A stretch of 64,000 nt of DNA from a virus (IMGVR_UViG_3300017987_000047); one strand, 5' to 3'. Positions 1 to 62,803 are shown, counted from the first letter of the stretch. Numbers and translations are program-made. Notes: generated by a model from the letters alone, not told the origin.

Positions 1-324
1 ATTAACAACCTCGGAATTTTGCTCAAGGCTAGCTAATTTGCGAGAGAGGCTTTCAAAAAAAACTAGACGAACATCTAAAAAGTAATACCTCTTAGGGGGT
101 CATCCTTTGAATCCCTACCTTATATTATATATATTATAAGCGTCATTAAAAACATAATAATTTCGAAAGCTTTTGGAGATATTGATCTCGCCCTTGAATT
201 TTCTAGAGAGAAAAACCCTTCTTTATTCAATTCGCCTTATCGATGGTATCCTTTTTTAACTAATACCTTTCCAGGGATTCGGATCTTAGCCAGAAAACTA
301 ATCGGGAATTAATTAAAATTCCTA

Positions 325-351
325 CGTTTTTCAATTTAATTCCGCTATATT
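325..351 (+). promoter_or_regulatory. putative phage promoter, CG-N5-CAA-N11-TATATT
   Basis: cg-ttttt-caa-tttaattccgc-tatatt; same spacing recurs in several intergenic gaps. Confidence 0.55.
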
Positions 352-372
352 TTTTAAGGTAGCAGTTTTAAT

Positions 373-1443
373 TTGCCGGAGAGATTAATGAGTTCTATAA
401 ATTTAGAAAAAAAAGAAAGACTTCCTCTTCCTCCTTCAAACTATATCCAAAAAATTAAGCGGCTAAAAGCAGGGAAAAAAGTTAATATAAAGCTCCTCTT
501 AAAACGTCATACTTTATCTAGCGATCAAATACTCGGGTTTCTTGAAATCCAGCAGCAAGCTTTTATTGAGGAATTTGCTGCCTATGCTAAAACGGATTCT
601 TACGATGGAAGGGTAGCTCTAAAGTTTTATCTTGCAGGGACACTCCAGGACTTAAGTCCCTACAATACCTGGGAATACATTTTCAAAAACTTCCAACTAT
701 TGCCCACGCACCATAAGTTAGAGCAACTTCAGAAAATGCTAGCAGCGGCTAAGGCACATATTAAGAACAAGTATAGTTATACAGCAGACAAAGCTAAGGC
801 CCGTCTTACTGTTATTACCTATTGGTATCCTGATTTACTTAATCAGGGGATGATAGAAGAATACCTAGAGCTGGGGCTAGCGATTGGGAATCCTCTAAAT
901 TATAGTGGCGAAACCTTAAAATCTTATATAAAGAACCTCAAAAACTTCCGAGTAAGTTATGATATATCTGAAGAGACCCTCAAAAGCTTTGCGGAGTCCC
1001 TAGCCAACCAAGGAACGGACTTTATTGAAGGCTGTTTAGAAGAGGGCGCAATTCCTTCCGATATTCTAAAATTCCGAAGGACATTATCCCCAAAAGAAAT
1101 ATCATTATTATTAAAAAGCACCTGGTGGGAGGAGAGGCGAACGTTTGAGGGAACAGTTTGCAATTCAATGTACTATTCCCCTCTAGATAGGCTGTTGGAG
1201 CAACCCTTAGAAAAAGAACAGTTTAACGAAATTTTATGTTCCTACATAATGGAAAAGAAGGAGGAATCAAGAATACAGTTAAGTGCGCATTCAACTGTTC
1301 AAGTGCTTTACCACCTTGATCGGACAAATTTAACCAAGCTTTTAACTCATAAAGATCCGAGCTTGCGTAAAGCCGCTAAGTTTTTCTACGAGAAATGTCC
1401 TGAAAAAGAGGACCTCGCAAAACTCTTGGAAGGGGGTTCGTAA
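373..1443 (+). CDS. hypothetical helical protein with C-terminal LTH-R-AK motif
   Basis: 356-aa ORF; LLTHKDPSLRKAAK encoded at 1339-1380. Confidence 0.8.
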   Translation: MPERLMSSINLEKKERLPLPPSNYIQKIKRLKAGKKVNIKLLLKRHTLSSDQILGFLEIQQQAFIEEFAAYAKTDSYDGRVALKFYLAGTLQDLSPYNTWEYIFKNFQLLPTHHKLEQLQKMLAAAKAHIKNKYSYTADKAKARLTVITYWYPDLLNQGMIEEYLELGLAIGNPLNYSGETLKSYIKNLKNFRVSYDISEETLKSFAESLANQGTDFIEGCLEEGAIPSDILKFRRTLSPKEISLLLKSTWWEERRTFEGTVCNSMYYSPLDRLLEQPLEKEQFNEILCSYIMEKKEESRIQLSAHSTVQVLYHLDRTNLTKLLTHKDPSLRKAAKFFYEKCPEKEDLAKLLEGGS

Positions 1444-1566
1444 TATCGGGGAACAGTTCGGAAAAACTCTTACTGGTTTTTAATTTTTATTCGTTTTTCT
1501 AGGGTATTCCTTATTATAATGGGAAGCCCACACTTGGTTGGTTCCGTTACAAAAGGAGAATGTAAC

Positions 1567-10842: not shown

Positions 10843-11022
10843 ATGCCTCAAATCGTTATTAGGACCGATAGCGGCAGAGTTTTGGGGGAGTTTGTCCAAT
10901 GTAAGGACAATGGAAAACAATTCTTTATTGTTACCTATAAAACCGACAAGAATAAGTATGGGAAAATCCAAGTCGAGAAAGTTACTTTTATCCGAGCAGA
11001 GAATAAAACATATGAAGCTTAG
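10843..11022 (+). CDS. small hypothetical protein
   Basis: GGAG SD, ATG at 10843. Confidence 0.6.
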   Translation: MPQIVIRTDSGRVLGEFVQCKDNGKQFFIVTYKTDKNKYGKIQVEKVTFIRAENKTYEA

Positions 11023-11947
11023 CAAACAACAAAGATTCATCAACCAGGTTCTTGGGGATTGCGGCGCGCTCGTAAATAATTTAGTGGTAAGTTGCTTTGA
11101 AGATGAATTCGAAGATATTGAAAAATTAGATGAATTTATCTTCTCCTTAGAAGATTCGTATCTCCAAAAACATCGGTTTGGGCGATTTAATGATAACGTT
11201 ACCCGAATAGCGGCTTACCTCCTAAAGGGATCTAAAGAAATCTTATCCGACACCCAAGCGCGGCGGCTAGTCCTTTTATTTCGGAATAACCTAGATTCGA
11301 CCTTGGTCATTCCTGCTGTGTTAGGGTATTATGATGGAAAAATTCCGGATGACCCATTCTTTAATTTTCTAATTCCTTGTTTACAAACCTTGCGAGATGG
11401 CGACTTAAAAATCGAATTATCTTCTGCACAAGGAAAAGAATTAGCGCGGCAACTCCACAGATTTGAAAGTTACGAGGCACTCCAAAATATTTCTTTTATG
11501 GATGCTTCCGTAGCTAGGCGTTTCTTAGATACGGTTTTAGAGAAAAAACTACCTTCCCCTGCTTACTTTAGGATTGTTTCAAATTGGGATATCCCAATAC
11601 CACACTCTTGGTTCCTAAGGCTAATTGAGCTTTACCCAGAATCCTACCAATGGGTAGAGACGAAAAGATCTTCTTTGCTTCGGGATATGAATTTACGGGA
11701 TTCCTTACTTATTAAGTATATCGGAAACCTAGTTTCTACCCCCGCCCTTGATAAGTGGGTTAAGAATCTTTCAAATCCTAAGTTAATGAAAATTTACCTC
11801 ACACACAAAAATAGTAAGTTACGTAGGTACGCTAAGAAATACCTAGAGAAACAGAAGAAAGCAGAGACAGACGGAACTGATAGAATAATTGATTTCATTA
11901 AATCAAACTCTTCCTTAACTTGGTTATCATTATTGGATTGGGAGTAA
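11012..11947 (+). CDS. hypothetical helical protein with C-terminal LTH-R-AK motif
   Basis: YLTHKNSKLRRYAK; ATG 11012 preferred over the TTG start. Confidence 0.75.
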   Translation: MKLSKQQRFINQVLGDCGALVNNLVVSCFEDEFEDIEKLDEFIFSLEDSYLQKHRFGRFNDNVTRIAAYLLKGSKEILSDTQARRLVLLFRNNLDSTLVIPAVLGYYDGKIPDDPFFNFLIPCLQTLRDGDLKIELSSAQGKELARQLHRFESYEALQNISFMDASVARRFLDTVLEKKLPSPAYFRIVSNWDIPIPHSWFLRLIELYPESYQWVETKRSSLLRDMNLRDSLLIKYIGNLVSTPALDKWVKNLSNPKLMKIYLTHKNSKLRRYAKKYLEKQKKAETDGTDRIIDFIKSNSSLTWLSLLDWE

Positions 11948-12258: not shown

Positions 12259-13158
12259 ATGGCATTTGAACCAACGTATAGCTCTCCAATCTTTACCTTA
12301 AAAGAGCTCCCCCAACGTAAAACTGCTCTAGAAGTAGATTCCGTTGCCCTGGGGAAGACGCTTTTTTCGTTTGAATGCCCTTTATACGTTCTACGGCGCG
12401 AATGTGCATATATTTTTGGTGGCTTCATTCGGGACGCCTACCACCATGACTCCTTTGATGATCTTGACCTCTCGGTCTCTAAGAAACAGCAATTTTTTAG
12501 CCTGATTCGGGAATTAAGGGATGGCTGGGGATGGGAGATCGAGTTTATTAGATCTGCTTCCAACTACTACCGGGCGCATTCTAAATGTCGCCACTGTAGA
12601 CTTGTTAAGGACGATGGAAGGCAAATCGATATCATTATCCGGGGGGACTATGATGAACTTGACCTCTCTTGTAACTCTATTGTTCTAGATACTGCAACCT
12701 TAAAAGCAGGTATTCCAAATCACGATATTACAACGGATTCTTTTAGTTCCATTCTCTCGCCTTGGGGTAATGTAGACGAAATTTCCAATGCTATTTACTC
12801 TGATTTAGCCTCAAAAACTCTTCGGATCCTAAGGCCATTAGATGAAAAACGTCAAGAGAAATATTTCAAACTTGCTCGGCAAAAAGGATGGAGATACCAC
12901 CTAAAATCAATCCAATATCATTTAGAGGGAAATCGTGTAGAATTATACAGGTTTCTCCGAAACTTTACTTCAGCGGAACTCAAGTCGTTTATTTCGCCTC
13001 TCATGCTTCATAGGGATATAATCCTGCAAAATTTCGCGGCTGCGATTCTTAAAAAGGAGAAAAAATTTAATCTCGCTTTGGGTCTTTCGATGATACTCCT
13101 AGACCCAGGAAATAAAAGGCGTATCTTTGCATCCCCAGAATTGGCCTGGAAGGATTAA
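12259..13158 (+). CDS. tRNA nucleotidyltransferase / poly(A) polymerase head-domain protein
   Basis: FGGFIRD, DDLDL, IDII, DLSCNSI; degenerate motif LMLHRDIILQNFAA. Confidence 0.7.
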   Translation: MAFEPTYSSPIFTLKELPQRKTALEVDSVALGKTLFSFECPLYVLRRECAYIFGGFIRDAYHHDSFDDLDLSVSKKQQFFSLIRELRDGWGWEIEFIRSASNYYRAHSKCRHCRLVKDDGRQIDIIIRGDYDELDLSCNSIVLDTATLKAGIPNHDITTDSFSSILSPWGNVDEISNAIYSDLASKTLRILRPLDEKRQEKYFKLARQKGWRYHLKSIQYHLEGNRVELYRFLRNFTSAELKSFISPLMLHRDIILQNFAAAILKKEKKFNLALGLSMILLDPGNKRRIFASPELAWKD

Positions 13159-13159
13159 A

Positions 13160-13504
13160 ATGGAAAAGAAATGGGCACTTGTCGTTTATAACGACGACTT
13201 ACACACTTTTGAAGAAGTAATTGATGCTTTTACTTCTGTCTTAGGTATAGAACAAGAAGGAGCAATTGCTTTAGCCTCTATGATCTCTTCCCCAATGGGG
13301 TTCGCTCCTGTTGCCCTCTTTCCTGAGGAAGAAATAGCACAAAAAGTTGCTCAGGAATTAAGGTACGCAACGGCAAAGGGCAATGCTCAGCAGGCTCTTG
13401 CCGGAATCCAGGTTGAAGTAGACGACGAAATTGCTAAAAAAATTGTGGAATCGGAAGATTCCTCCGACGATTCTCAGCCGTTTGATACACCTGACTTTCT
13501 TTAA
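13160..13504 (+). CDS. clpS: ClpS-like N-degron adaptor
   Basis: ALVVYNDDLHTFEEVI..L..E.A..A...G.A.V..EE.A fits the ClpS core. Confidence 0.7.
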   Translation: MEKKWALVVYNDDLHTFEEVIDAFTSVLGIEQEGAIALASMISSPMGFAPVALFPEEEIAQKVAQELRYATAKGNAQQALAGIQVEVDDEIAKKIVESEDSSDDSQPFDTPDFL

Positions 13505-13521
13505 CCCCAGGAGAAAAAAGA

Positions 13522-13803
13522 ATGCCGGAAACTACTACTCTTGATGTCCCTATTTCAGCAAACCGTCTTGTCTATATCGCCCGGCTTTGGGACCAAAATC
13601 TTTTTCTCATCTTTGATGGGGAATTATTGCATCTCAAAGAAAAAACTTTCAACTGGAAGACGGGGTCTGAGGTGGAAGCTGTTCCAGGGACCAAAAAGAT
13701 GCCCAACCCCGAAAAAGTAAATGAGTTAACTAAACCCGACATGGAAAGGGTGCAGCACTTGTTAACTCAAATTAACAAAGAATATGAGAACGACAAGCGA
13801 TAA
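13522..13803 (+). CDS. hypothetical protein
   Basis: AGGAG SD. Confidence 0.65.
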   Translation: MPETTTLDVPISANRLVYIARLWDQNLFLIFDGELLHLKEKTFNWKTGSEVEAVPGTKKMPNPEKVNELTKPDMERVQHLLTQINKEYENDKR

Positions 13804-13820
13804 AAAACGGAGAAGTTTTA

Positions 13821-14030
13821 ATGTATAAACACATCAATGAGGTCCAACCGGGCGATGTGGTCGTTGATCCTCTGGACGGTGTACCACGCACCGTATGCTG
13901 CTGTGACCTCAAGCAAGACGAGTTCTTTGGCAGAACCCTTTGGGGGGACTGCTACCGTCTCGGGACGGTCCCGGTCGAAGTCGTTACCCCTCCACATATC
14001 CGCCCGTGCTTGCGGGCAGAAAAACCTTAA
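13821..14030 (+). CDS. small hypothetical protein
   Basis: GGAG SD. Confidence 0.5.
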   Translation: MYKHINEVQPGDVVVDPLDGVPRTVCCCDLKQDEFFGRTLWGDCYRLGTVPVEVVTPPHIRPCLRAEKP

Positions 14031-14057
14031 GCAATTCAAGGAAAATATAATTTCTTA

Positions 14058-14084
14058 CGTAGCACAAAGGTAGTTCCCTATATA
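14058..14084 (+). promoter_or_regulatory. putative phage promoter, CG-N5-CAA-N11-TATATA
   Basis: cg-tagca-caa-aggtagttccc-tatata. Confidence 0.55.
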
Positions 14085-14166
14085 TTAATTACCGGGTTTT
14101 TATTACCGGAGTGCAGTTTTGCCCCAAGCGGGCAGTATCCCTCAAAGCCCTGCAAGGAGAAGAGGA

Positions 14167-15360: not shown

Positions 15361-15411
15361 TTTTCGAGTTGGTTTAGTTTACGGGATATCCCAGATTGGA
15401 GACACAGAAAA

Positions 15412-15756
15412 ATGGCAAAACGTTTCTTTCCCCTTTATGGGCACAAGTACATCTACTGGGATGAAAAACTTTCCCTGTGGGATGTGCGGGCGTACGACCC
15501 ACGCTCAAGCAAGACGCACACCGTGGGCCGCTTTGAAACCTATAAGGAAGCAATCGAAGCGCAACGCGAGTTCTATACCAAGGAACTGCACTTCGATCTC
15601 TCCTTCCTCAAGACCCTTATGCGGGACGACGCGCGTAAGACTGGGGTCTCGTTCAACGACCATACGAAGCTCTGGGTTGTCCGCAGCACCGGAAAAAACC
15701 AGAAGTATGTCGGAAGCTCGAAAAAATACCAGGAGGCGGTAAAGCTCCTCGGTTAG
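15412..15756 (+). CDS. tandem AP2-like DNA-binding domain protein
   Basis: two units: YIYWDEK..W.VR..VGRF.TY.EA and GVSF....LWVVR..YVGS...Y.EA. Confidence 0.6.
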   Translation: MAKRFFPLYGHKYIYWDEKLSLWDVRAYDPRSSKTHTVGRFETYKEAIEAQREFYTKELHFDLSFLKTLMRDDARKTGVSFNDHTKLWVVRSTGKNQKYVGSSKKYQEAVKLLG

Positions 15757-15777
15757 GGTTTCGTTCCTTGCAGGGAA

Positions 15778-15834
15778 CAGCACGCACCCCCGATAACTTT
15801 TGAATGGTTATCGGGGGTGTTCGTGTTGTTTTTT
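15778..15834 (+). terminator. intrinsic terminator
   Basis: cacccccgataac / gttatcgggggtg hairpin + T-run. Confidence 0.8.
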
Positions 15835-15871
15835 AGAGTTCGCTTGGTATATTATCAAAAACGGATACCAA

Positions 15872-16786: not shown

Positions 16787-16852
16787 CTTCTAAAATTCGT
16801 AATAATAAAGTTGAGTTCGTTTGCTAAGTTGTTTTCTGATTGAAAGGTAACG

Positions 16853-17155: not shown

Positions 17156-17186
17156 TATATAGATCTATAACAACTTAGCAAACAGG

Positions 17187-17927: not shown

Positions 17928-17929
17928 AA

Positions 17930-48864: not shown

Positions 48865-48969
48865 AGACTTACCTCCAATACTTTTTAGTATAATATACAG
48901 GTTATTTTGCGAAAAAATTGTCACATGGGGACTCATTACCCGCATTTAGAGATGGAGAGTTAAGAGATG
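48855..48969 (+). repeat. diverged ~110-bp direct repeat, copy 1
   Basis: tcttctccaca-acttacctcc..gtataatataca..tttgcg..cat.accc..atggag..gatga, shared with 53929-54042. Confidence 0.75.
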
Positions 48970-49686
48970 ACGTTAAAGGGCCGGGTTATTCAAGATTTTC
49001 AAAAGTATATATCAAAAGACTTTTTAGGTAGCCTAGTCCAGCCTTATTTTGATTATGTTTTGGATCTGGACCCTTTTCCGGGATGGAAAGAAACTTGGAA
49101 AAAACTTAATAACTTAGATAATGTTACTATTTCGATGGAGATGGGCTACGCGGATTTCGAAAACCCCACCAGAAGATGCAGTCTTCTTTGTTTCGCTGTT
49201 AACCCTATTTATATTCCCATTCATAAAAAGGATATCCCTAAGAATTGGATTTTCTTTGAAGATGCTATAACACACTACGATAAAAAGATTAATAGACTGT
49301 TATGTAATATAATGGATGGGGTAAGGAGCAGGTGTAAAAAGTTTTTTACTAAACATTTTAATATTCTCTATAAAGCAGACCCGTTTCACTGGTCCTATAT
49401 GACTTACGTAAAAGAGAAAACTAAAGTGGAAGTAGAAGTAGAGGTCCCGTTGAAAAATTCTTGGCAAGACGGGACTTACGTAAGGGAAGAAATGGAAGTG
49501 GAAATGGAAGTAGAGGTCCCGTTGAAAAATTCTTGGCTATACCGAATAGCCTCCCTCTCGGATGATCTTGGATTTGATCTTTCACTATTTGAAGAAATTG
49601 AAGCAGACCTCCCCCGAGAAGCTTATCTAACATCTCAATACCCCTATTTAAGAAATCTTGCAAGAAAAGAGTTAGGATTAAAATAG
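48967..49686 (+). CDS. hypothetical protein with internal 72-bp duplication and C-terminal LTH-R-AK motif
   Basis: EVEVPLKNSW twice (49435-49465 = 49507-49537); YLTSQYPYLRNLAR. Confidence 0.75.
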   Translation: MTLKGRVIQDFQKYISKDFLGSLVQPYFDYVLDLDPFPGWKETWKKLNNLDNVTISMEMGYADFENPTRRCSLLCFAVNPIYIPIHKKDIPKNWIFFEDAITHYDKKINRLLCNIMDGVRSRCKKFFTKHFNILYKADPFHWSYMTYVKEKTKVEVEVEVPLKNSWQDGTYVREEMEVEMEVEVPLKNSWLYRIASLSDDLGFDLSLFEEIEADLPREAYLTSQYPYLRNLARKELGLK

Positions 49687-49737
49687 CACATTAAAATCCC
49701 AGTTAATTACGATTCGCTATTTCTAATCCAATTCTTT

Positions 49738-49764
49738 CGTTATTCAAAATAAAATCGTTATATA
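49738..49764 (+). promoter_or_regulatory. putative phage promoter, CG-N5-CAA-N11-TATATA
   Basis: cg-ttatt-caa-aataaaatcgt-tatata. Confidence 0.55.
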
Positions 49765-49814
49765 TTTAGGGTTGAAGTTGCGCCAAAAGGAAATTACTTT
49801 TAGGAGAATTTGAG

Positions 49815-50759
49815 ATGATTAGGGTCTCAACAAAAACTCATTTTGTTTTATATGCCTATACTTATCCGGATAAAATCAAATTAGCAAAAGCAAATTTGAA
49901 ACTAAAGAAAAAAGAAAAAACAAAACTATCAATTAAAATTGGGGATACAATTCAAGGGGTCGATAAAAAGAAATCTGTAGAAGAATGTGCTTGGCTACGG
50001 ATGAATCAGCAGGGGGATGCTAACGAAAGCCAGAAAAAAATCTTATTTAAGGCATGGTTTATTGAAAAAACTTCGTACTTTCGTAGGGATAAAGATCTTC
50101 ATCGGGTACTTAAACAAAGAGGAATGCAACCAAAAGATGAATATGATGGCAAAGGGTGTGAATGGTTTAATATTTCTTACGACGGAACAAAAGAAAGCAG
50201 TATTAAAGAAATTGAAGAGTTTATAACAAGGGTGCAAAAGAAAAACCCAAGGGAAATTCTCAGACTCGAACCACTTCAAGAGAAAAAGTTAAACCAATGT
50301 CTGCTTCTCATAGACCAATTTATACAAGAAGGCAGAAGTTCCGAAATTTGTAATATCATTGCTAATCTCTGCCCAAGATTTGGAAAAACTCTTTGGGCTT
50401 TACGCCTATTCCAAGAACTTAATAAAAAATACGGGAATAATTTACTCCTTTTACCTGCCTATGCTCTTTCTTCCCATTCTTCTTTCGAGAAAGAAATTGA
50501 TAAATACGAAGATTTCCGTAACATAAGATTTATTGATATTTATGAGGAAAATTATGATTTGAAAATGGAAGATACCCTAAACTCTGGGGACCTAGCAGTT
50601 GTTTCAATTTCTTCTCATATTGATGAAGCTAAAATTGAAAGGTATTTAAAACCCATTAAAGATTACGATGATGATAAAAAGTTTGTTTTTATAGATGAGG
50701 GGGATCTGGGTATTTGGAAAGAACACGGACGCAAAGTCTTCAAGTATCTGTTTAAATAG
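49815..50759 (+). CDS. N-terminal part of a restriction-modification fusion (nuclease-like domain + SF2 helicase motifs I-II)
   Basis: LYAY..IKIGDT..D..LH..L..EWF; PRFGKT; FIDEGD; ends at an in-frame TAG. Confidence 0.65.
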   Translation: MIRVSTKTHFVLYAYTYPDKIKLAKANLKLKKKEKTKLSIKIGDTIQGVDKKKSVEECAWLRMNQQGDANESQKKILFKAWFIEKTSYFRRDKDLHRVLKQRGMQPKDEYDGKGCEWFNISYDGTKESSIKEIEEFITRVQKKNPREILRLEPLQEKKLNQCLLLIDQFIQEGRSSEICNIIANLCPRFGKTLWALRLFQELNKKYGNNLLLLPAYALSSHSSFEKEIDKYEDFRNIRFIDIYEENYDLKMEDTLNSGDLAVVSISSHIDEAKIERYLKPIKDYDDDKKFVFIDEGDLGIWKEHGRKVFKYLFK

Positions 50760-50771
50760 AAAGCGAATTAC

Positions 50772-53375
50772 ATGCCAGCTATCCTTATTAACGCATCTGG
50801 AACAGGTCTTTCGAAATTAGCTCTGGGCCAAGAAGGAAAAACTTATGGGTTAATTGAAACTGCTTATTGCCAGATAGAAAAACTTCATAAAAATAGCGTC
50901 AAACGAGATTTTTACCAATTAAAATTAAACTCCGAAATTCCTGATTTAAAAAAATATATAGAAGACTCTGGAAATTTTAAATGGAAAAGAATGATTGAGG
51001 ACGTCAACAAGAATTCAAGAATTTGGAAAAAACTGTTTAGCGGATTTTTTGATTTAGATGATGAAGATTTTAAGGAGCTATCATTAAATAGAATCCTAGG
51101 AAAAACTCCGCATGTTATAAAAATCGATGTTGGTTTTATTAAAAACGAGGAGCTAGAAAAATTATACAATTTAACAAAGGACTGGTTAAAAAAATATATC
51201 GTTATCCAGCTCCAAGGGGAAGCTAATAACGATTTAAATACAAATAACAGAAACGCTGAAGATATTGTTAAAAATGCGGTTGAGGATGCTAGGGAGAAAG
51301 AAAAGCAGGGGGTGATAATCTTAGCCAGTAGTAGAATGGGTGTGAGAAGCTTCTCTGTTTCCGAAGTTGAAGCTGTTATCGAAATGTATGATAAAGGATC
51401 CCAAGAAGTTGCTTCGCAATTAATGCTTAGAGTTTGTACTCCAGGTACCTGTTATAATGGGGAAACCAAGAAGAGGGGCGCCATTATTACATTATCAATA
51501 GACCCTAATCGGGATGAAACTTTCTTATTAACATTATTGAATGAAGCTAAAATCGTTGCAAATGAAGAAAAAATTTCAATAGCGGACGCTTTAAAAGATT
51601 GGGTTTTAGATTCGATGAATATTTTTAGGGTAAATGAGGTGGGTTCCTATATAAAAATGGCCCCAGAAAAAGTTATCGAGACCCTATTAGAAAAAGAAAA
51701 TCTTTTAAGAATTGCAGAAGTAGCATCAATTTTAAAATTGGAAGATCCGAATCTTGATAAAACTATACTTTCTATTTTAGATAAAGTAAAGGATGAAAAA
51801 ACCAGGAGGAAGAAAAAAGAAAAAGTTTTGAAACCATGTAAAACCCATGGAAAGCCCGGAAATAAAGCTGGAAAAAAATCAGAAGCAGACGAAGACTTAT
51901 TAAAAGAGAGACGGAAAAAACTAGTATTTCTTAATAGACAAACAGGAATAACTGTTGCTGAGCTAGCAAATTGTGGAGCTGGTTATCGCAAATGTATTGA
52001 AATAATCCAAGCTGCCACCCCAATAAAAAAGTATTTCGAAAAATTAACGGGAATTTTAGTTGAAGAGATTATTCAATTAATAGACGCAGAATTTCTAAAT
52101 ACCCACTGGTTAGACCTTATTGTTGCAAAATCCTTTCAAGATTTTGAGCTAGAAAAACAAAGTGGAACAATTCCTTCTTGCGAACGAACAAAAAATAGAA
52201 TTTCTAATAAAAGTAACGCCGTTTTAGGGACTAGGGACGCGGAAAAATTATGGAAAAAAGCTTTAAAAGAAATTTCTTTAAAAAAGAAACAAATAAAGAT
52301 TTTAAATGTTGCTGCGGGGTATGGAACAGAAGCAAATTTACTCAAAAAGGAAATGGAAAAATCCGGATGGAATAATACAGAAATTCAAAACTCTCTATAT
52401 CTACTAGATAATGACCCTGGAATGGTAAAAAGACTTAAGGATCTTGAGTATAATAATATAATAGAAAAGGATTTTGAAAAATGGAAAACTTTAATGAAAT
52501 TCGATTATATTATTGGGAATCCCCCATATAAAAGGGGGCTTCATCTAAAATTTTTGAAGAAGGCAAGAAAACTTTTAAATGATGGGGGAAAAGCAATTTT
52601 TGTTCACCCCGCAACCTGGGTTTTGAACGAGATTCCGGGAAGCGATATTAAAAAATCTAGGGAAGAGATTGAGCCATATACTATAGGGTTTTACTTTTTC
52701 GATGGAAAAAAATATTTTCCTAAAGACGATGCAGATTTAGGAATGACTTTATCTATAACAACTATTCAATCTCGGCAGAGAGATTCAAAAATTAAGGTAG
52801 AATTTGAAGACTTAAAGAAGTATAGTAAATACGAAGTAAATTCTTTCGATGAAATTAATAAATATGGTAATAACCCTTTCTATAAATCCTTAAAAAAGAA
52901 AATTCTAAAAGAAGTAACTAACAAAGGATCCCTAGCTGAAAATTTGAATCGGGGAGGAAAGTATTACGTTTATATTTGCAATATAATTGGAACACAAGAA
53001 AACAACCAGTGGGGAGGAAATTCTAGATTTTTTACTTTCTTCGCAGAGGAGCTCTCAAAAAAAGCAGGAATAAAAGCGAAGGTGTATTTGAAGAAACCAG
53101 ATAAAGCATCAACAAGATATATCGGATTTGAAACTTTGGAAGAAGCTAAAAATTGTATTTCTTATCTTAAGACTTTCTTCGCAAGATTTTGCCTAAGCAT
53201 CGCTAAATTTGATAGAACAATTAATAAAATAACGTTAACTTTAATTCCCTGGCAAAATTTCAAACAGCCCTGGTCCGATGAAAAACTTTTTAATCAGTCT
53301 AATTTATCAAAAAAAGAAATTATTTTTATTAAGAATACAATTCCAAAAGCTTATAATGACGTAGAGCTAAAATGA
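50772..53375 (+). CDS. helicase C-terminal part + gamma-class N6A methyltransferase + Eco57I-like C-terminal domain
   Basis: SGT, Q...R; NVAAGYG, FDYIIGNPPY, SYLKT.F.RF..IPWQ.F...WSDE.L. Confidence 0.8.
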   Translation: MPAILINASGTGLSKLALGQEGKTYGLIETAYCQIEKLHKNSVKRDFYQLKLNSEIPDLKKYIEDSGNFKWKRMIEDVNKNSRIWKKLFSGFFDLDDEDFKELSLNRILGKTPHVIKIDVGFIKNEELEKLYNLTKDWLKKYIVIQLQGEANNDLNTNNRNAEDIVKNAVEDAREKEKQGVIILASSRMGVRSFSVSEVEAVIEMYDKGSQEVASQLMLRVCTPGTCYNGETKKRGAIITLSIDPNRDETFLLTLLNEAKIVANEEKISIADALKDWVLDSMNIFRVNEVGSYIKMAPEKVIETLLEKENLLRIAEVASILKLEDPNLDKTILSILDKVKDEKTRRKKKEKVLKPCKTHGKPGNKAGKKSEADEDLLKERRKKLVFLNRQTGITVAELANCGAGYRKCIEIIQAATPIKKYFEKLTGILVEEIIQLIDAEFLNTHWLDLIVAKSFQDFELEKQSGTIPSCERTKNRISNKSNAVLGTRDAEKLWKKALKEISLKKKQIKILNVAAGYGTEANLLKKEMEKSGWNNTEIQNSLYLLDNDPGMVKRLKDLEYNNIIEKDFEKWKTLMKFDYIIGNPPYKRGLHLKFLKKARKLLNDGGKAIFVHPATWVLNEIPGSDIKKSREEIEPYTIGFYFFDGKKYFPKDDADLGMTLSITTIQSRQRDSKIKVEFEDLKKYSKYEVNSFDEINKYGNNPFYKSLKKKILKEVTNKGSLAENLNRGGKYYVYICNIIGTQENNQWGGNSRFFTFFAEELSKKAGIKAKVYLKKPDKASTRYIGFETLEEAKNCISYLKTFFARFCLSIAKFDRTINKITLTLIPWQNFKQPWSDEKLFNQSNLSKKEIIFIKNTIPKAYNDVELK

Positions 53376-53926
53376 AAACCCCAAAGAGAACACAAGAAAC
53401 CGGAGAAGTTTTTACTCCAAATACCTTAGTCCTGCAAATGTTAAAACAGGATAGTTCAAAAACTTTTCTCGACAACTCCTGTGGCAACGGTCAATTCCTT
53501 ATTCAAATTCTTAAACAAAAACTTAAATACCATAGCATTGAAGATTCTCTTTCAACAATCTATGGCGTCGACTTAATGGCAGATAATATCTGTGATACAA
53601 TTGCACGCTTAATTTTCTATAAAAACCTCCAAGAAGATATTTTTGATGAAAAAGGGCAACCTAATCCAGATTTAGATTTTGATGGGTATGATGATCACAA
53701 TTCATTTGAGATTTTGAGAGATAATAAGTTCAAGCGAAAATACGACTTCAAGAATAATACAATACTTGTCCGGAACAAAAAAAACAAGTGGTGGCTTTTA
53801 GAATATCGCTTTAATAAAGAAAGATGGCAGAATTTACCAAATATTATATGCGCAGACGCCCTAAAATACCATTATCGGTTTGACAACTCCTATCCCTACG
53901 ACGGGGAAGAAGAAGACTTGATTTAA
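53372..53926 (+). CDS. small methyltransferase-like subunit (SAM-binding half only)
   Basis: GEVFTP, FLDNSCGNGQFL, IYGVDL, NIICADAL; no NPPY. Confidence 0.75.
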   Translation: MKTPKRTQETGEVFTPNTLVLQMLKQDSSKTFLDNSCGNGQFLIQILKQKLKYHSIEDSLSTIYGVDLMADNICDTIARLIFYKNLQEDIFDEKGQPNPDLDFDGYDDHNSFEILRDNKFKRKYDFKNNTILVRNKKNKWWLLEYRFNKERWQNLPNIICADALKYHYRFDNSYPYDGEEEDLI

Positions 53927-53928
53927 AC

Positions 53929-54042
53929 TCTTCTCCACAACTTACCTCCTATGGCTTTTGTATAATATACATGCTGCTTTGCGCAAACTGCCACGCAGAG
54001 ACACATCACCCCAACTTAATAATGGAGGATTAGGAGACGATG
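53929..54042 (+). repeat. diverged ~110-bp direct repeat, copy 2
   Basis: aligns by eye with 48855-48969. Confidence 0.75.
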
Positions 54043-55674
54043 AAATTATTAAGTATCCTAAAAAATTGGCTTATTCAAAGAAAAATGAATAACCTAAAAA
54101 CTTGGATTCTAGCTATAAATTCAGCTATAGCTCAACTTGATTGTGTGCGGAGGTCAATTACAATTCAAAACTTATTCCCGGGAGAAACGAAAGAATTTTA
54201 TGAAAAATATTTTCGAGCTGAACTCTCCAATCTTTTTGGAGCTGTGCTTGAAAGCTCTACCTTAAAAAGGATAAAGCACTTAGAATTTATTGATGCTACC
54301 GCCGCTATCAACAATATTAACTTTTGGTTAAGGCATCCCAAATTAAAAGAAATTCTAGAAGAACTTTCGGAATCAGTTATTGATATTTATTTACAAGCAA
54401 AATGTAATGATTTTCTCTATCATTTAACTGGAGACCCTCAAAAGCTTTCAAAAGCAATAAATCAGTATTTAGGTTTGGCAGAAAAAGAGGAAGAAATAGA
54501 AACAAAATATGCTTCTATCTTTAGAGCTCTTAGCCTCGTTTATATTTCTCGGCTAAATCTTTTTGATCTAGATATAAGTATGCTTGAAAAGCTAAAAACC
54601 GCCCTTGAAAAAATTGACCCCGGTCGAATTAAGTCTAATTATTTTGAAGCTCTTTTTGAAGTTGAGATCAAAGACGAATGGGACGGTACTCAGAAAAAAC
54701 TCACACAAATTCAAAGAGCTAAAGACCCCAAAGAAAGGAATACAGCAGAAACTAAAGTTTTGGAAGAATGGAGCGAATGGAAAGCTAAGAAAGCAAAAGA
54801 AACTATTGATAGAGATATCGCTTTTATTGGTGATCTGATAATGCTGTTACAGCAAAAACAGAATATTTTAAAAATGTTAAAAGATAAAACATTTTTTGGG
54901 TTTCTTAAATCGGAAGAATTCCATTTATTAGAAAAGACCTTTACTGGGCCAACCGAGAAGCTCATAATATATGCTTTTATTCTTAAGATTAAAAACCAAA
55001 AGGTTCCGGAGATTTCACAGAGTCGGCTAAGTCACTTATTTCCACTAACGCAATATAAATTGGAAAATTTCTATAACTCTAAAAGACCGAATTCCCATTT
55101 AATTGAAATTTTCCTAAGAGATAGATTTTTAAATTTATCTACGTTTTCAAAAAGAACGGGAATAGCTTTTTTGCAAGGGATAGAGATAGATAGGGAAAAT
55201 CAAACCAATCCTTTGCTTGGTGCCCTAGTCGAAAAAGTTATTGAGCTGGACGCAGGCCACCCAGCATTGGAAAAGTTTTTGCGCTATACCCTATGTAAAT
55301 CGACACAGGATAGTTCCGAGAGCCCTCATATGAATAATTCTTTTACAATGTTGAAAAATATTAGAAATGTTGAAAGCCATGGTTTTGCAATTAATTTGTT
55401 TACAACAAAGCAAATTGTAGAATGGGAAGAGCATGAAATTTTTTCTGCCATAAAACTTATTTTATTTGAACTTAATAAGTTTTTTGCAGAGCAAGAAGAA
55501 GCAAAATTGGGAGAAGCAAAACGTAAAGAAATAGAAGAAATAGAAGAAACAGGAACTTTTTCAAACAGCTCAATCCTTAGTTCAGAAGAAATAGAAAGAG
55601 CTTTAGAGAAATTCTCAACAACTCTCAACAACTCTCTAACAATCTCAAAGACAAACAATCATCAAAATGAATAA
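54040..55674 (+). CDS. hypothetical helical protein
   Basis: 544 aa; IRNVESHG is a possible RxxxxH (HEPN-like) motif, weak. Confidence 0.75.
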   Translation: MKLLSILKNWLIQRKMNNLKTWILAINSAIAQLDCVRRSITIQNLFPGETKEFYEKYFRAELSNLFGAVLESSTLKRIKHLEFIDATAAINNINFWLRHPKLKEILEELSESVIDIYLQAKCNDFLYHLTGDPQKLSKAINQYLGLAEKEEEIETKYASIFRALSLVYISRLNLFDLDISMLEKLKTALEKIDPGRIKSNYFEALFEVEIKDEWDGTQKKLTQIQRAKDPKERNTAETKVLEEWSEWKAKKAKETIDRDIAFIGDLIMLLQQKQNILKMLKDKTFFGFLKSEEFHLLEKTFTGPTEKLIIYAFILKIKNQKVPEISQSRLSHLFPLTQYKLENFYNSKRPNSHLIEIFLRDRFLNLSTFSKRTGIAFLQGIEIDRENQTNPLLGALVEKVIELDAGHPALEKFLRYTLCKSTQDSSESPHMNNSFTMLKNIRNVESHGFAINLFTTKQIVEWEEHEIFSAIKLILFELNKFFAEQEEAKLGEAKRKEIEEIEETGTFSNSSILSSEEIERALEKFSTTLNNSLTISKTNNHQNE

Positions 55675-55945
55675 TACAGAATTGAAAAAATACATTGAAA
55701 AAACGAACATCAGGCTTGCCTTAGGTTACGAAGAAACTATTTTCTTTAATTATGGTTTGTTATTGGGCCTTTTCCATGCTGGGAATATTAACAAATCACA
55801 ATATAAGATGTTCAAAAAAGTCTATGCCAACGAAGAGAACGGAGATCTTAGCTATACAATTGACACTAAAGGAAAACTAATTAAGAATTAACGTATAAAG
55901 GGTCGTGGAAACCCTCTCAAATCCCAAACCATGGAAAATAGCAAA

Positions 55946-56404
55946 ATGAAAAAGCTTAGTTTGATTCTGTTTCTGCTTCTAATTTCTTGCGGGTTTCACT
56001 ACGACTACCACCAGGAAATCCAGATCGACCAACTGTTCTTGGAGGGGGCTAACTTACGTATTGTTCATATGGAAGGGGATCTTCTCCAGACCACGCTTAT
56101 TAGTGGGTGGGGGAATGAACACCACCCCAGGATAAAGTCTGAATTTGATGCTTGCCTAGAAACTATTCCTGCTTCCGTTTTGGAGAAGTTCTCTCAACCT
56201 CCGGCATATTTCGGGTTTATTATCTTAAAGGACCTTGCTGAGGATCAAAAACCTTATGCTCTCATATTACATTTTAGTGGGGAAGGAAAACGCAACTATG
56301 CGGAGATACATCTTCGGGAGGAAGATGCTTTAGAGGGAGGGGTTGCTGGTTATGGTAAATTCGGCTGTGCTCATCTCTCTGAAATTGACCTAGGGGAACA
56401 GTAG
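55946..56404 (+). CDS. putative lipoprotein
   Basis: MKKLSLILFLLLISC lipobox. Confidence 0.65.
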   Translation: MKKLSLILFLLLISCGFHYDYHQEIQIDQLFLEGANLRIVHMEGDLLQTTLISGWGNEHHPRIKSEFDACLETIPASVLEKFSQPPAYFGFIILKDLAEDQKPYALILHFSGEGKRNYAEIHLREEDALEGGVAGYGKFGCAHLSEIDLGEQ

Positions 56405-58254: not shown

Positions 58255-58839
58255 ATGGCATTTACCTGCATTAAAATAATTGATAGCCAGGTTAGAATCC
58301 AACATGGCTTTCGGATTCTTCTTTTTTACCAGAACTCCCAAGGCTGGAAGAAACTTTTCGTTAAACTTGACGAGAAAGTGCAATCTTGGGTATATTTAGA
58401 GTTTCAAGCTGGAATCTGCCAACTATTAACTCACTCCTTACCTGAAGTGCGGCAACTAGCAAAGAAGATAAACCAAAGGGGCTTTGAATATTTTGATGCC
58501 TTGTGGGATTTACGCTTTGAATTAGGCCCTCAATGCTATACTCAATTCAAAGCAAGGGGGGATACTCTTCTTTATTACGTGAGGCATAAACAGGAGAAGA
58601 TCTTTTTTGACCCATATTTAGGCCCAGCTTTGACAGGACCGACAGGACTGACAGGTTTGACAGGACCGACAGGACCGACAGGTTTGACACCAACAGGCCG
58701 TCTCAGCTCAAAAACACCTAATCTTTCTCCTCAAATTTTAAAACCCCAGAAAAAACAAAGCCCCTGTCTTCAAAACATTGGCCCTGCAGCCCCTTCACGA
58801 AGTCGGGGAATATGGCAAAAGATATTCCGGAGAAGATAG
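58255..58839 (+). CDS. LTH-R-AK motif protein with short collagen-like G-X-T repeat
   Basis: LLTHSLPEVRQLAK; 9-bp repeats at 58630-58698 (TGPTGLTGLTGPTGPTGLT). Confidence 0.7.
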   Translation: MAFTCIKIIDSQVRIQHGFRILLFYQNSQGWKKLFVKLDEKVQSWVYLEFQAGICQLLTHSLPEVRQLAKKINQRGFEYFDALWDLRFELGPQCYTQFKARGDTLLYYVRHKQEKIFFDPYLGPALTGPTGLTGLTGPTGPTGLTPTGRLSSKTPNLSPQILKPQKKQSPCLQNIGPAAPSRSRGIWQKIFRRR

Positions 58840-58881: not shown

Positions 58882-59283
58882 GTGGAAAAACTGATCACGC
58901 CAACAACGATGTACTTACTAACTTTTAAACAAAGCCCCTGTCTTTCCTTGACGGGTTGGGATGAAATCCTTCACTTCTTTAAGGATTATCCGACAAAGGA
59001 CGAAATACGGATTTGTTTTCTCAAGGCATTGAAAGACTACATTCTCTATTATGATATGGATCCAAACAAGGTTGGGATTCGGGAAGATGCTTTTCGTAAT
59101 TCTTTCACTTTAATTAATAAAGACAAAACTGAGAGAGTTTCAGAAGAAGGGGAGATTGTTCTTTTCGGGGATGTTCGCTTCTCAGTTGAAAAGGTTAAAA
59201 CGGAAACATCGAGAAAGTTGGAATCATTTCTCACAGATGATTTTGCTTGTATTCGTAAATTCGTTAAGGGGCTAAAAGATTAG
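58882..59283 (+). CDS. hypothetical protein with C-terminal motif variant
   Basis: FLTDDFACIRKFVK. Confidence 0.7.
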   Translation: MEKLITPTTMYLLTFKQSPCLSLTGWDEILHFFKDYPTKDEIRICFLKALKDYILYYDMDPNKVGIREDAFRNSFTLINKDKTERVSEEGEIVLFGDVRFSVEKVKTETSRKLESFLTDDFACIRKFVKGLKD

Positions 59284-59945: not shown

Positions 59946-60494
59946 ATGAAATATAAAACAAACTATCTCATAAGATTTGAATTCCTACTATTTAACCAAA
60001 ACTTTTATTTTTCTAGGTTTCCGAAACAAAGGGATAAACTAGAAGCCGTTTTAACCTTCTGTAATTATCTATCCGGGGTATGGGATAAAAAAATACTTTC
60101 TTTTAATCTTAAGGACTCCAACTTAGAATCTTTTCTTAGCACCCCCACGGTTGGAGCTGGGAAAGTTTACCTAAGACGGCTAGTGCCACCTTTTTATAAT
60201 TATTCTACCAAGATTTCTTGGTCGTTAGAGCTTCGACAAGTTAGCACCGACTCTAGGAACCTTAATCGCCCAGCTTCCTTAAAAACTTTTTTAACCGTTG
60301 GGTCCGCTGAGCTGCGAAAACTTGTTAAATCTTGTATAAGGGGGACGACGATGAAATGTAAAGAGAACCCAAACCAAAGTTATTGGAATCTTCGGTTTAC
60401 CCAAACGAAGCCAAGAGAACAAGGTTGGGGTAAGGATAAGAAAAGTTGGGCGGCAGCCCCTATCCGTAAAAAGGTAAAAAACTTATGTACTTAA
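59946..60494 (+). CDS. hypothetical protein with motif variant
   Basis: FLTVGSAELRKLVK. Confidence 0.7.
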   Translation: MKYKTNYLIRFEFLLFNQNFYFSRFPKQRDKLEAVLTFCNYLSGVWDKKILSFNLKDSNLESFLSTPTVGAGKVYLRRLVPPFYNYSTKISWSLELRQVSTDSRNLNRPASLKTFLTVGSAELRKLVKSCIRGTTMKCKENPNQSYWNLRFTQTKPREQGWGKDKKSWAAAPIRKKVKNLCT

Positions 60495-60797: not shown

Positions 60798-61355
60798 ATG
60801 AATAAGCATCTCTCAAAATACTTAACAGCGGATAATCCTCTTTTAAGAAACTGGGTTAGGGAGAGAATTCATAGGACTGACCAGAGATACGAAGTTATCG
60901 AAGATGTTATTCATTATATTCCTAAAGAGAATCAGTATGTTTGGGGATGGGTGGATATTCAATTTTTTCGGGTTAGAGAAGAAAAAAAGCAAAAAGTTAT
61001 CTATTGTGATTTCTTGAAATGTAATAATTGTCTTTTAGCTTCTCTTCCGGCTCTTCCGGTTTGTAGGAAATTGCACTGTGATAGTAACCGGCTAACTTCC
61101 CTCCCGGAGCTTCCTGTTTGTGAGATTTTAATCTGCGACTACAACCAATTAACTCTCCTTCCGGCTCTTCCGGCTTGTAGTATTTTGCAATGTGATAGTA
61201 ACCGGCTAACTTCCCTCCCGGAGCTTCCTGTTTGTGTAGAGTTGCATTGCACGGGCAATAAATTAATGAAACTTCCAAAACTTCCCTCGATTAACGAAGA
61301 TCTCTTGTTCTATGGGAATAACCCTGGTTATGGTACTCCGGGGTTTTACAAATGA
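60798..61355 (+). CDS. N-terminal LTH-R-AK motif + bacterial-type LRR protein
   Basis: YLTADNPLLRNWVR; 19-aa LTSLPELP.C..L.C..N repeats; 46 nt identical at 61077 and 61191. Confidence 0.8.
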   Translation: MNKHLSKYLTADNPLLRNWVRERIHRTDQRYEVIEDVIHYIPKENQYVWGWVDIQFFRVREEKKQKVIYCDFLKCNNCLLASLPALPVCRKLHCDSNRLTSLPELPVCEILICDYNQLTLLPALPACSILQCDSNRLTSLPELPVCVELHCTGNKLMKLPKLPSINEDLLFYGNNPGYGTPGFYK

Positions 61356-61780
61356 GCCGACATCTTTCTCTAGAAGCATTTTCTTCCTTCAACTATGGGG
61401 ATTTACTTGTTCTTAAGGGGGAATTGTCCTGGTATCCCCCGAGCATGGATTTTAAGAACATTGAAACGGAGTTGGTTTTCTTTTATTCTTCAAGTACTAA
61501 TATTAAGATAGGTAGTTACCCCACAATTTTCGTTCGTCCTTTCTATCCGCAGCAGAAACATCCGAAACATCCGGATTTAAGGTTATCTGGTTTTGCTAGT
61601 AGGCATTATTCCATAGATATGCTTTCAGAGGTGGAGCTATATGATTTTGATAGGCATCTAGAGGCTAACCAAAGCCTTAAAACCCTTCTCACACAAAATT
61701 TTAAGGAATACCTAACTCACAAACACTTTGATATCCGGAAGTTAGCAAAAAGATACGCAAAGCACGTCTCAACCACTTAA
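61352..61780 (+). CDS. hypothetical protein with C-terminal LTH-R-AK motif
   Basis: YLTHKHFDIRKLAK. Confidence 0.75.
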   Translation: MSRHLSLEAFSSFNYGDLLVLKGELSWYPPSMDFKNIETELVFFYSSSTNIKIGSYPTIFVRPFYPQQKHPKHPDLRLSGFASRHYSIDMLSEVELYDFDRHLEANQSLKTLLTQNFKEYLTHKHFDIRKLAKRYAKHVSTT

Positions 61781-61791
61781 AGGAATTTAAC

Positions 61792-62442
61792 ATGAAACCG
61801 GAATACATCAAGCAAGCAAGGGAAAAGTTTGAGTTGGACCTCGAAAGCATTGAAGATTGGGAAGAGCGGCATAACGACTCTCCAGAAATCTTGAAATTTT
61901 ACAATGAAATTTTGAAATATTACTTTTGGGAGATAGATCATCCGGATGACCATGAAAGTATTGGTGCTCACATGAACACCAGTATTTATAGTCTACTTAA
62001 GAAAGCCGTTGGCCCTCGCTCTTACGAGGACCCGGCAGACTTTATTCTAGGGCTACAATCTTTTTTATCGAATTGCGTCCTGGACGACTCGTATTATAAA
62101 ATCTCTTACGAGCGTTACTATGATACTTCTAGCGAAGAATTTCGTATGCAATATCGGAAGCAATGGCTTCGCATGTTCTTTTTCAGACTTTTCGTCGCCC
62201 GTAAGCGTAAACGGCTTTGGCGTAAACATGGACCATTTATTCCATGTAAGAAAAAGGATTCTGGCGCACATCCTATCCTTGTATGGTCGCATGACATGGA
62301 CCCTGACGCTCGCAATGATATAGAAGGGTTATGGGAAGCATTTAACTTCTATATCGAAAAAGAAGCAAAGGGGGTAGAAATACATAAAACTATCAGAGAA
62401 GAAGTAACGAAAATACGGGAGGCTAAGGATGAGAATAGATAG
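61792..62442 (+). CDS. hypothetical protein
   Basis: AAGGA SD. Confidence 0.7.
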   Translation: MKPEYIKQAREKFELDLESIEDWEERHNDSPEILKFYNEILKYYFWEIDHPDDHESIGAHMNTSIYSLLKKAVGPRSYEDPADFILGLQSFLSNCVLDDSYYKISYERYYDTSSEEFRMQYRKQWLRMFFFRLFVARKRKRLWRKHGPFIPCKKKDSGAHPILVWSHDMDPDARNDIEGLWEAFNFYIEKEAKGVEIHKTIREEVTKIREAKDENR

Positions 62443-62803
62443 AGAAAAGCTGAGGGAAAGGCTTCGTAAACACGATCGAACGATCTTTTTCGTTAAATAC
62501 GACTATCTCCTCGAACATCATTACTACCTCATAAGGAAGGAAAGCATCTATATACTTTGGGCTGGTTGCGATATCTTCGATGACCTTAATAGGAATCACC
62601 TTGGCTCTATTTTCCAGGAAGAACTAATAACTGGACTTGAAAAAGCAAGGTCTTCGGGTTCTTGGGAAGCCCCTAAGGACCCTAGCTATTCACACAGTAT
62701 TGAAAAACTAGAAATTCTAGATCCCAGGGCATGTCTCACAAATAAAAGCAAGGCTGTGCGTAAGGCTGCAAAATATTGCTTAGGAGAAAAAAATTATGAT
62801 TGA
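62429..62803 (+). CDS. hypothetical protein with C-terminal LTH-R-AK motif
   Basis: CLTNKSKAVRKAAK. Confidence 0.7.
   Translation: MRIDREKLRERLRKHDRTIFFVKYDYLLEHHYYLIRKESIYILWAGCDIFDDLNRNHLGSIFQEELITGLEKARSSGSWEAPKDPSYSHSIEKLEILDPRACLTNKSKAVRKAAKYCLGEKNYD

Follow-up and report, generated by a model that had tools for sequence, protein, structure and literature searches.

A HEAT-like tag shared by mostly unrelated proteins of an uncultured giant phage, a candidate docking handle

A short, predicted helical hairpin, called the tag below, recurs in about a quarter of the genes on a 64,000-nt stretch of DNA from an uncultured giant phage (IMGVR_UViG_3300017987_000047; the whole stretch is referred to as the window). 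The tag module has about 22-24 residues and the register of one HEAT repeat. It is found in 27 of the 109 plus-strand open reading frames (ORFs), mostly at the ends of fast-evolving accessory proteins whose bodies are mostly unrelated, and it is conserved at the level of protein. It also occurs in at least three other uncultured phage genomes or contigs. We tentatively propose that the tag is a common docking handle for a single reader protein, the likeliest of the explanations considered and a serious possibility, if still short of a probable one.

Detection, anatomy and conservation of the tag

A strict regular expression for the tag matched the window 13 times, always in plus-strand coding frames and never in the three minus-strand frames. 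A 24-column profile hidden Markov model (HMM), built from the clear copies and iterated once, found 28 copies with scores of 19.4-34.6 bits. The next-best ORF scored 6.1 bits and the best minus-strand frame 3.7 bits. In 50 shuffles of all window proteins there was no match of 15 bits or more (maximum 7.1 bits), and the top score among the reversed window proteins was 3.7 bits. Shuffled and off-frame controls had been called for when the tag was first noticed; the shuffled, reversed and minus-strand sequences all fell far below the real copies. With leave-one-out profiles 26 of the 28 copies still scored above the shuffled maximum. The profile also detected an extra copy outside the called ORFs, at nt 253-294 (28.9 bits).

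The original prediction had listed 32 ORFs as carriers, named here by their first nucleotide. The profile finds the tag in 27 of them; two (42954 and 43429) are degenerate, and 4849, 12259 and 23260 have no recognisable copy. The tag had been described as nearly always single-copy, and this is so in 26 of the 27 carrier genes, the exception being ORF 34014 with two tags about 100 residues apart. Its reported absence from several recognisable proteins was reproduced, as the profile scan found no tag in the rIIA-like ATPase, AAA ATPase, vWA/DUF2201, kinase, PP2C, RNA ligase and methylase ORFs. The copies are as follows (coordinates, strand, description, profile score):

253..294, plus strand: tag in the frame 79-309, which lacks a canonical start (no ATG, GTG or TTG in frame); 28.9 bits
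1339..1380, plus strand: tag 20 aa from the C-terminus, ORF 373-1443 (356 aa); 31.6 bits
11795..11836, plus strand: tag near the C-terminus, ORF 11012-11947, whose start at 11012 is supported by P0033; 27.7 bits
20714..20755, plus strand: tag near the C-terminus, ORF 20219-20809, with an N-terminal transmembrane helix (residues 6-24); 22.3 bits
21620..21661, plus strand: internal tag, ORF 21392-21898, kept in the orthologue P0013 (76% identical); 26.3 bits
24900..24941, plus strand: tag in the C-terminal extension of the nucleotidyltransferase (NTase) ORF 24219-25139, with a PolyA_pol head domain; paralogue 12259 is tagless; 27.3 bits
25217..25258, plus strand: N-terminal tag, ORF 25208-25804, weakly like leucine-rich repeat (LRR) proteins (weak LRR match in the PDB, E = 0.011); 32.1 bits
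26545..26586, plus strand: C-terminal tag, ORF 26137-26604; 25.6 bits
29399..29440, plus strand: C-terminal tag, ORF 29141-29464, between the PP2C and kinase genes; 27.1 bits
34452..34493, plus strand: first tag (internal), ORF 34014-34811; 22.8 bits
34752..34793, plus strand: second tag (C-terminal), ORF 34014-34811; 29.9 bits
36048..36089, plus strand: internal tag, ORF 35745-36737; 22.0 bits
37148..37189, plus strand: C-terminal tag, ORF 36731-37231; 23.6 bits
38301..38342, plus strand: C-terminal tag, ORF 37986-38369; 23.4 bits
38732..38773, plus strand: C-terminal tag, ORF 38366-38803; 24.4 bits
39793..39834, plus strand: tag 25 aa from the C-terminus, ORF 39406-39912; 19.4 bits
39951..39992, plus strand: N-terminal tag, tail-anchored membrane protein ORF 39897-40319 (transmembrane helix 119-137); 29.5 bits
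41369..41410, plus strand: C-terminal tag, ORF 41039-41428, paralogue of 41425; 30.6 bits
41767..41808, plus strand: C-terminal tag, ORF 41425-41820, modelled by AlphaFold2 (AF2) as a helix-turn-helix at low confidence; 27.2 bits
42231..42272, plus strand: C-terminal tag, ORF 41817-42314; 31.4 bits
42688..42729, plus strand: N-terminal tag, membrane protein ORF 42661-42957 (transmembrane helix 44-62); 34.6 bits
46347..46388, plus strand: C-terminal tag, ORF 46059-46418; 27.6 bits
49624..49665, plus strand: C-terminal tag, ORF 48967-49686; 22.1 bits
58423..58464, plus strand: internal tag, ORF 58255-58839; 28.1 bits
59227..59268, plus strand: C-terminal tag, ORF 58909-59283; 23.4 bits
60288..60329, plus strand: internal tag, ORF 59946-60494; 21.7 bits
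60819..60860, plus strand: N-terminal tag, LRR protein ORF 60798-61355, kept in the orthologues P0016 and P0017; 26.5 bits
61709..61750, plus strand: C-terminal tag, ORF 61352-61780; 31.4 bits
62732..62773, plus strand: C-terminal tag, ORF 62429-62803; 21.1 bits

The copy at 253-294 lies in a 77-codon open frame that also contains an AT-rich, promoter-like stretch (about 100-170). This frame could be a recent pseudogene, a gene with a non-canonical start or the frameshifted end of the upstream gene, whose stop codon at 85 is in a different frame.

The predicted hairpin begins with a very short helix A, which ends in an aromatic residue or Leu followed by Leu-Thr. A turn of the form [HSN]-x-[DN]-P leads into helix B, which is amphipathic and basic and has the pattern [ILV]-R-x-hydrophobic-A-K-x-x-[LI]. 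A helix start of the type Pro-Glu/Lys is frequent 4-5 residues ahead of position -1. Numbered from the invariant Thr as position 0, the conserved positions are:

Position -2: aromatic or Leu
Position -1: Leu
Position 0: Thr, invariant
Position +1: His, Ser or Asn
Position +3: Asp or Asn
Position +4: Pro in about half of the copies
Position +6: Ile, Val or Leu
Position +7: Arg, invariant
Position +9: hydrophobic
Position +10: Ala
Position +11: Lys
Position +14: Leu or Ile

In AF2 models of two unrelated carriers the tag forms a helix of 5-6 residues, a three-residue turn and a helix of 10 residues, at a confidence (predicted local distance difference test, pLDDT) of just 33-53.

Placement is biased towards protein ends: 17 of the 28 copies lie within 10 residues of one (p < 5e-5 against uniform placement). 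The C-terminal position is the commonest, as had been noted, with 18 copies no more than 20 residues from the C-terminus. Four copies are N-terminal (25208, 39897, 42661 and 60798) and about seven are internal.

The codons of the tag vary freely among copies, as the original prediction had stated, and conservation must therefore act on the protein. Four codons are used for the Thr and six for the Arg, identical residues share a codon in 35% of pairs, and the mean nucleotide identity between copies is 48%. A nucleotide-level element, for example a recombination site, was set aside because of this codon variation. The tag is better conserved than the proteins which carry it. In all six pairs available for comparison (four orthologue pairs from other metagenomes and two paralogue pairs from the window) the identity of the tag exceeded that of the body, at 75 vs 39%, 95 vs 79%, 60 vs 46%, 65 vs 53%, 53 vs 36% and 55 vs 33%. 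The first of these values are those of carrier 39897 and its orthologue P0012.

HEAT-repeat kinship and the bodies of the carriers

An exhaustive search of 1.84 billion representative proteins with the tag profile yielded 28 proteins at E ≤ 1e-3. They comprised carriers from the window itself, further small proteins bearing one or two tags, and large proteins with 2-9 matched stretches each. Apart from P0029 (see below), the large multi-unit matches are true HEAT arrays, which supports the resemblance to a HEAT unit that had been seen at the outset. P0020, P0021, P0025 and P0031 are HEAT_2/HEAT arrays by Pfam, with E values down to 1e-166, and in a unit-by-unit alignment the array units of the HEAT matches are in identical register with the tag. 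The tag and the HEAT families (PF02985, PF13646 HEAT_2 and PF03130 HEAT_PBS) have in common the Leu-x at the end of helix A, the [DN]-P turn, the [ILV]-R-x-x-A motif and a Leu seven residues after the Arg. They differ in three respects. The tag is a single unit per protein, whereas HEAT repeats form tandem arrays of three or more units; its helix A is shortened to about 6 residues; and its Thr, [HSN] and Lys stand at sites that in arrays are usually variable, Asp or Ala. HEAT arrays do also have Leu-Thr at the position of the tag Thr, and this residue can therefore be purely structural.

At the level of single sequences the kinship is faint. Of the 31 positions in the HEAT model PF02985, one tag segment covers 4-20, and three of 28 isolated segments match this model weakly, the best with E = 0.0026 and the first with 12.5 bits against a cut-off of 23.5. 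No HEAT family was matched by Pfam at E ≤ 0.01 in any of the 27 carriers, and there was no clear HEAT array among the window ORFs scanned. Compared with the PDB, the tag profile matched designed repeat proteins and, by chance, the U1-C zinc finger, but nothing else.

Three proteins from the searches deserve mention. P0022, from a short metagenome contig, has two tags about 29 residues apart; as this is the normal spacing of units in HEAT arrays, the protein looks like a minimal two-unit array. P0019, likewise from a short metagenome contig, has two tags about 100 residues apart within an internal duplication. P0029 (541 aa), one of the large proteins matched by the exhaustive search, has eight repeats of about 50 residues, the core of which resembles the second half of the tag only (acidic residues and Leu-Arg-Lys-Ile-Ala-Lys). 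It is not HEAT by Pfam and appears to be a separate repeat family.

That the bodies of the carriers differ, as had been proposed, is borne out by BLASTP with the tags masked. Among carriers and window proteins it linked three pairs only (12259-24219, 26137-41817 and 41039-41425), and the carriers are mostly not members of one family. A Pfam family was matched in one of the 27, the PolyA_pol-type NTase head of 24219. In this NTase family 24219 is tagged, while its paralogue 12259 and a homologue on another phage contig are tagless; the tag therefore comes and goes within a family. Carrier 60798 has a confident LRR body (AF2, pLDDT 80-95) joined to a low-confidence helix-turn-helix tag (39-53), and the AF2 model of 41425 is mixed alpha/beta. 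For carrier 41817 no homologue other than itself was found among 5.8 billion proteins. Descent of all carriers from one gene was considered and set aside because the body folds differ and the tag is found at either end.

Five of the 27 carriers have a hydrophobic, transmembrane helix, as do the relatives P0012 and P0027. The membrane carriers combine either an N-terminal tag with a C-terminal transmembrane helix or an N-terminal transmembrane helix with a C-terminal tag. By prediction their basic tag should face the cytoplasm.

The product of ORF 373-1443 stands somewhat apart. Its low-confidence Atlas model (pLDDT 0.49) aligns to HEAT/ARM solenoids over about 280 residues with a template modelling score (TM-score) of 0.54-0.56. 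It is the largest C-terminally tagged carrier, and a candidate for the source of the tag or for a surface on which tags stack.

Tags in other phages and the genomic surroundings

Tagged proteins in other phages were found on genomes of very different size. The contigs Ga0180432_10000064 (153.7 kb) and Ga0180431_10000007 (283.5 kb) encode P0027 and further tagged ORFs (L003, L016 and L017). A contig of 34.2 kb and 33% GC (L010 and L027; a Logan contig of SRR23332761) contains nine tags, six of them C-terminal, on both strands. This contig is rich in unusual auxiliary genes, namely an animal-haem-peroxidase-like gene and genes for OTCase, PTPS, UvdE, DnaJ, NUDIX, an NAD-dependent ligase and a sulfotransferase. 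The smallest known system with the tag is a complete phage of 38,644 bp with 105-bp direct terminal repeats (G001, IMGVR_UViG_3300029258_002841; L022 and L023). Of its 57 ORFs three, of 192, 132 and 62 aa, are tagged, and it encodes a large terminase and a helicase as well as collagen-like and cement-like proteins. Except for the tag no protein was detectably shared between this phage and the window or the other tag loci, a comparison that covers about 140 kb of sampled large-phage DNA. On short contigs there are also diverged orthologues of three window carriers, and these retain the tag.

P0025 and P0037, whose units score 23-25 bits against the tag profile, are read as cellular HEAT proteins because of their gene neighbours. 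A tblastn search with the near-consensus tag matched no cultured phage. Degenerate DNA patterns for the tag matched in IMG/VR only the 38.6-kb phage and one HEAT protein. In the JGI metagenomes they matched seven stretches, of which three are true lone-tag contigs, three are chance matches with Ser codons at the Arg position and one is weak and unclassified (13.8 bits). In representative prokaryote genomes they revealed no lone tag, the matches being one Brocadiaceae HEAT array and one out-of-frame chance match. Such absence elsewhere is weak evidence because the strict DNA patterns detect only about one tag in 10-30.

The tags of different phages are not identical. At position +4, 14 of the 29 copies in the phage studied here have Pro and one has Glu, while on the 34-kb contig eight of nine have Glu and none has Pro (Fisher p = 1.6e-6). 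Carriers of the one are not homologous to those of the other. If each lineage had a reader of its own, a switch from Pro to Glu shared by unrelated proteins would be the expected outcome.

Some features of the window lie outside the tag system. A low-GC island (48000-56000; 33-34% compared with about 41%) encodes an 867-aa Eco57I/MTS-like methylase protein and a 544-aa protein without a family, and may be recently acquired or mobile. At its edge is the sole sizeable minus-strand gene (47830-48945), encoding 371 aa with a weak DUF2116 treble-clef match. The rIIA-like protein has no close relatives in IMG/VR.

A proposed docking handle and its alternatives

It might be asked why a unit normally found in arrays should recur alone on so many proteins. 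We favour a docking handle because selection acts on individual residues of a small, exposed-looking module, because the module is portable, prefers protein ends and is attached to binding domains and enzymes, and because it shifts with the phage lineage. One reader would recognise the hairpin by its invariant Thr, Arg and Lys and by the hydrophobic face of helix B, and would gather all tagged proteins at one hub in the cytoplasm or on the inner face of the membrane. The variable bodies would then supply differing targets or activities. Suitable surfaces for such a HEAT-like hairpin would be an alpha-solenoid or a helical groove. The host could supply the reader, since the complete 38.6-kb phage is tagged and has no other detectable protein in common with the window.

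F-box proteins and the ankyrin/PRANC proteins of poxviruses join a constant small docking module to variable binding domains. The tag resembles them in its combination with LRRs in 60798 and, weakly, in 25208, a likeness of architecture only, and in forming large paralogue-like sets in a big virus. It differs in that its roughly 22 residues have no similarity in sequence or size to the F-box of 40-50 residues. No F-box or PRANC match was found by Pfam in any of the 27 carriers, and we know of no Skp1-like partner in bacteria. A second parallel is the import of proteins into the phage nucleus of chimalliviruses by the PicA pathway, for which no conserved linear signal was found and a surface patch has been argued (PMC11087766). 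If the tag is a sorting signal, both would be cases of phage-specified sorting of many phage proteins; the signal described here would differ in being a clear linear motif. Neither chimallin nor PicA was seen, though no search was aimed at them.

A bolder form of the docking proposal, which we consider rather unlikely as a whole, takes the hairpin for an address label for one hub protein, possibly the host's, on fast-evolving accessory proteins of unrelated phages of 38 kb to more than 300 kb. These phages would come from the same kinds of habitat, and LRR binders, NTase enzymes and membrane proteins would all be plugged into one cellular machine. Such a system would be the bacterial-virus counterpart of the F-box and PRANC sets, made from a single HEAT unit, and the switch from Pro to Glu would mark co-evolution with the reader of that lineage.

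Several points weigh against a docking handle. About a quarter of the copies are internal, and a free end is therefore preferred and not needed. The shift at position +4 could equally be a founder effect, in which a single ancestral tag multiplied inside each genome. The idea of a host reader is based on limited sampling, about 140 kb of phage DNA. Finally, a single hairpin of the HEAT type might be packed onto the body of its own carrier and not onto a partner.

The last point leads to the alternative that survives best, although we regard it as unlikely. In this case the tag would be a structural element acting within its own protein, either as a helical cap that stabilises it or as the sole unit still recognisable by sequence in a degenerate alpha-solenoid, and there would be no common reader. 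The model of 373-1443 described above is HEAT/ARM-like, and the tag of this carrier may be the last and best-preserved unit of a degenerate array. The cellular HEAT proteins P0025 and P0037 contain or end in tag-like units. In some carriers the tag may be the one unit of a degenerate array that is still recognisable. Detection of alpha-rod repeats from sequence is poor (PMC2647740). Set against this, the carriers span an LRR fold, an NTase, a mixed alpha/beta model and single-pass membrane proteins, and the tag is found at either end of them and is better conserved than they are. Moreover, the low AF2 confidence at the tag of 60798 beside its confident LRR body is not suggestive of tight packing.

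Proteins of phage T4 suggest another explanation, a signal for loading cargo into the virion. The tag would dock inside the procapsid or on the scaffold, so that the virion would carry the tagged proteins and eject them into the next host. Such loading is established for the internal proteins of T4, where an N-terminal capsid-targeting sequence of about 10 residues marks the packaged proteins and is cut off by the prohead protease (PMC3012670). Like the tag, this is a short conserved peptide on highly diverse phage accessory proteins, and that of T4 is read by one assembly. The tag differs in being mostly C-terminal (4 of 28 copies are N-terminal), helical and HEAT-like, and in occurring on membrane proteins too. 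Another parallel is the C-terminal helix-turn-helix of the P22 scaffolding protein. The encapsulation peptides of microcompartments and the cargo-loading peptides of encapsulins are short amphipathic helices at either terminus of unrelated cargo, joined by a variable linker. In these respects the tag, a terminally biased amphipathic helix at the N- or C-terminus of unrelated proteins, is similar; it differs in being a predicted two-helix hairpin with invariant polar residues. No BMC-H/P shell or encapsulin gene was found by Pfam or PHROGs among about 50 window ORFs scanned.

A terminal, amphipathic and basic helical element on diverse small proteins is what a loading signal might look like, and giant phages do package many proteins (PMC5694885). 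All the same we think cargo loading quite improbable. It would require the packaging of about a quarter of the window genes, and the carriers sit among RNA-repair, methylase and signalling genes and not among structural genes. Most copies are C-terminal, and a pattern of protease sites was not seen. The transmembrane helices of the five membrane carriers and of P0012 and P0027 also fit packaging poorly. The original prediction had spoken of a portable helix recognised by one partner, with virion loading among its possible roles; portability, selection at the protein level and a position mostly at the ends of mostly unrelated bodies were all upheld, and it is the loading role that fits poorly, given the membrane carriers. 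Of the other destinations it had named, neither a compartment nor a protease hub was identified.

In one place of the window a tagged gene keeps company with enzymes that could act on it. Start and stop overlap in a run of three genes, which encode PP2C (28371-29141), a tag carrier of 107 aa (29141-29464) and a Ser/Thr kinase (29431-31113). The C-terminal 300 residues of the kinase form a beta-propeller (Atlas model; TM-score 0.88 to a phage kinase family). This raises the idea of a regulatory or modification sequon, in which a phage enzyme would phosphorylate or glycosylate the invariant Thr to switch carriers on or off, with the kinase and the phosphatase as candidate enzymes. All 29 copies and every relative seen have Thr at this site, and Ser, Asp and Asn never take its place; the coupling of the three genes would be translational; and the beta-propeller is a common peptide-docking fold. 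However, one carrier beside the kinase is expected by chance because 25% of genes are carriers. Nor is there a kinase or a glycosyltransferase among the ORFs of the 38.6-kb phage that were scanned or have precomputed Pfam matches, and the Leu-Thr of true HEAT arrays offers a structural reason for the Thr. A sequon seems to us very unlikely.

To much the same low degree we would credit a tag that acts as a generic helix, amphipathic and basic, and has membrane lipid or nucleic acid and not a specific protein as its target, in the manner of the membrane-targeting helices of MinD and FtsA. Its position at protein ends suits such a role, as do the hydrophobic residues at -1, +2, +3 and +6/+7 relative to the Arg and the basic stripe formed by this Arg and the Lys residues at +1 and +4 from it, often with further basic residues after them. 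But lipid-binding helices are not conserved residue by residue, while the tag has a conserved turn and a T, R and L that show little or no variation. Carriers which already have a transmembrane helix would not need a second means of binding lipid.

HEAT units normally stack on one another via the conserved Arg, and two-tag proteins exist (34014 in the window, P0019 and P0022 elsewhere), but a self-association module, in which tags of different carriers stack or bundle into one assembly like the docking domains of assembly-line enzymes, is scarcely credible, as most carriers have a single copy; a complex prediction with four copies of the tag segment scored 0.03 (mark 0.42), which counts neither for nor against it.

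That a single partner can read a short tag shared by many unrelated proteins is already known from T4, from loading peptides and from the F-box and PRANC proteins. A search of the literature on lone HEAT tags and shared terminal motifs in giant phages brought up nothing relevant, which is not proof that the tag is undescribed. What is new here is the evidence from an exhaustive search for kinship with HEAT repeats, the occurrence in other phages including a complete small one, the gain and loss in the NTase family, the shift from Pro to Glu, and the caveat raised by the solenoid-like model of 373-1443.

The genes of giant phages are mostly small orphans of no known function. If the tag is a docking handle, a label on a quarter of them would unite them functionally, and its reader would give one experimental handle on dozens of uncharacterised proteins. 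It would also mean that a repeat unit believed to function in arrays only can serve by itself as a portable docking module. With the complete 38.6-kb phage, the reader could be sought in a much smaller system. If the reader is a protein of the host, the tag would be a shared point of attack for unrelated phages.

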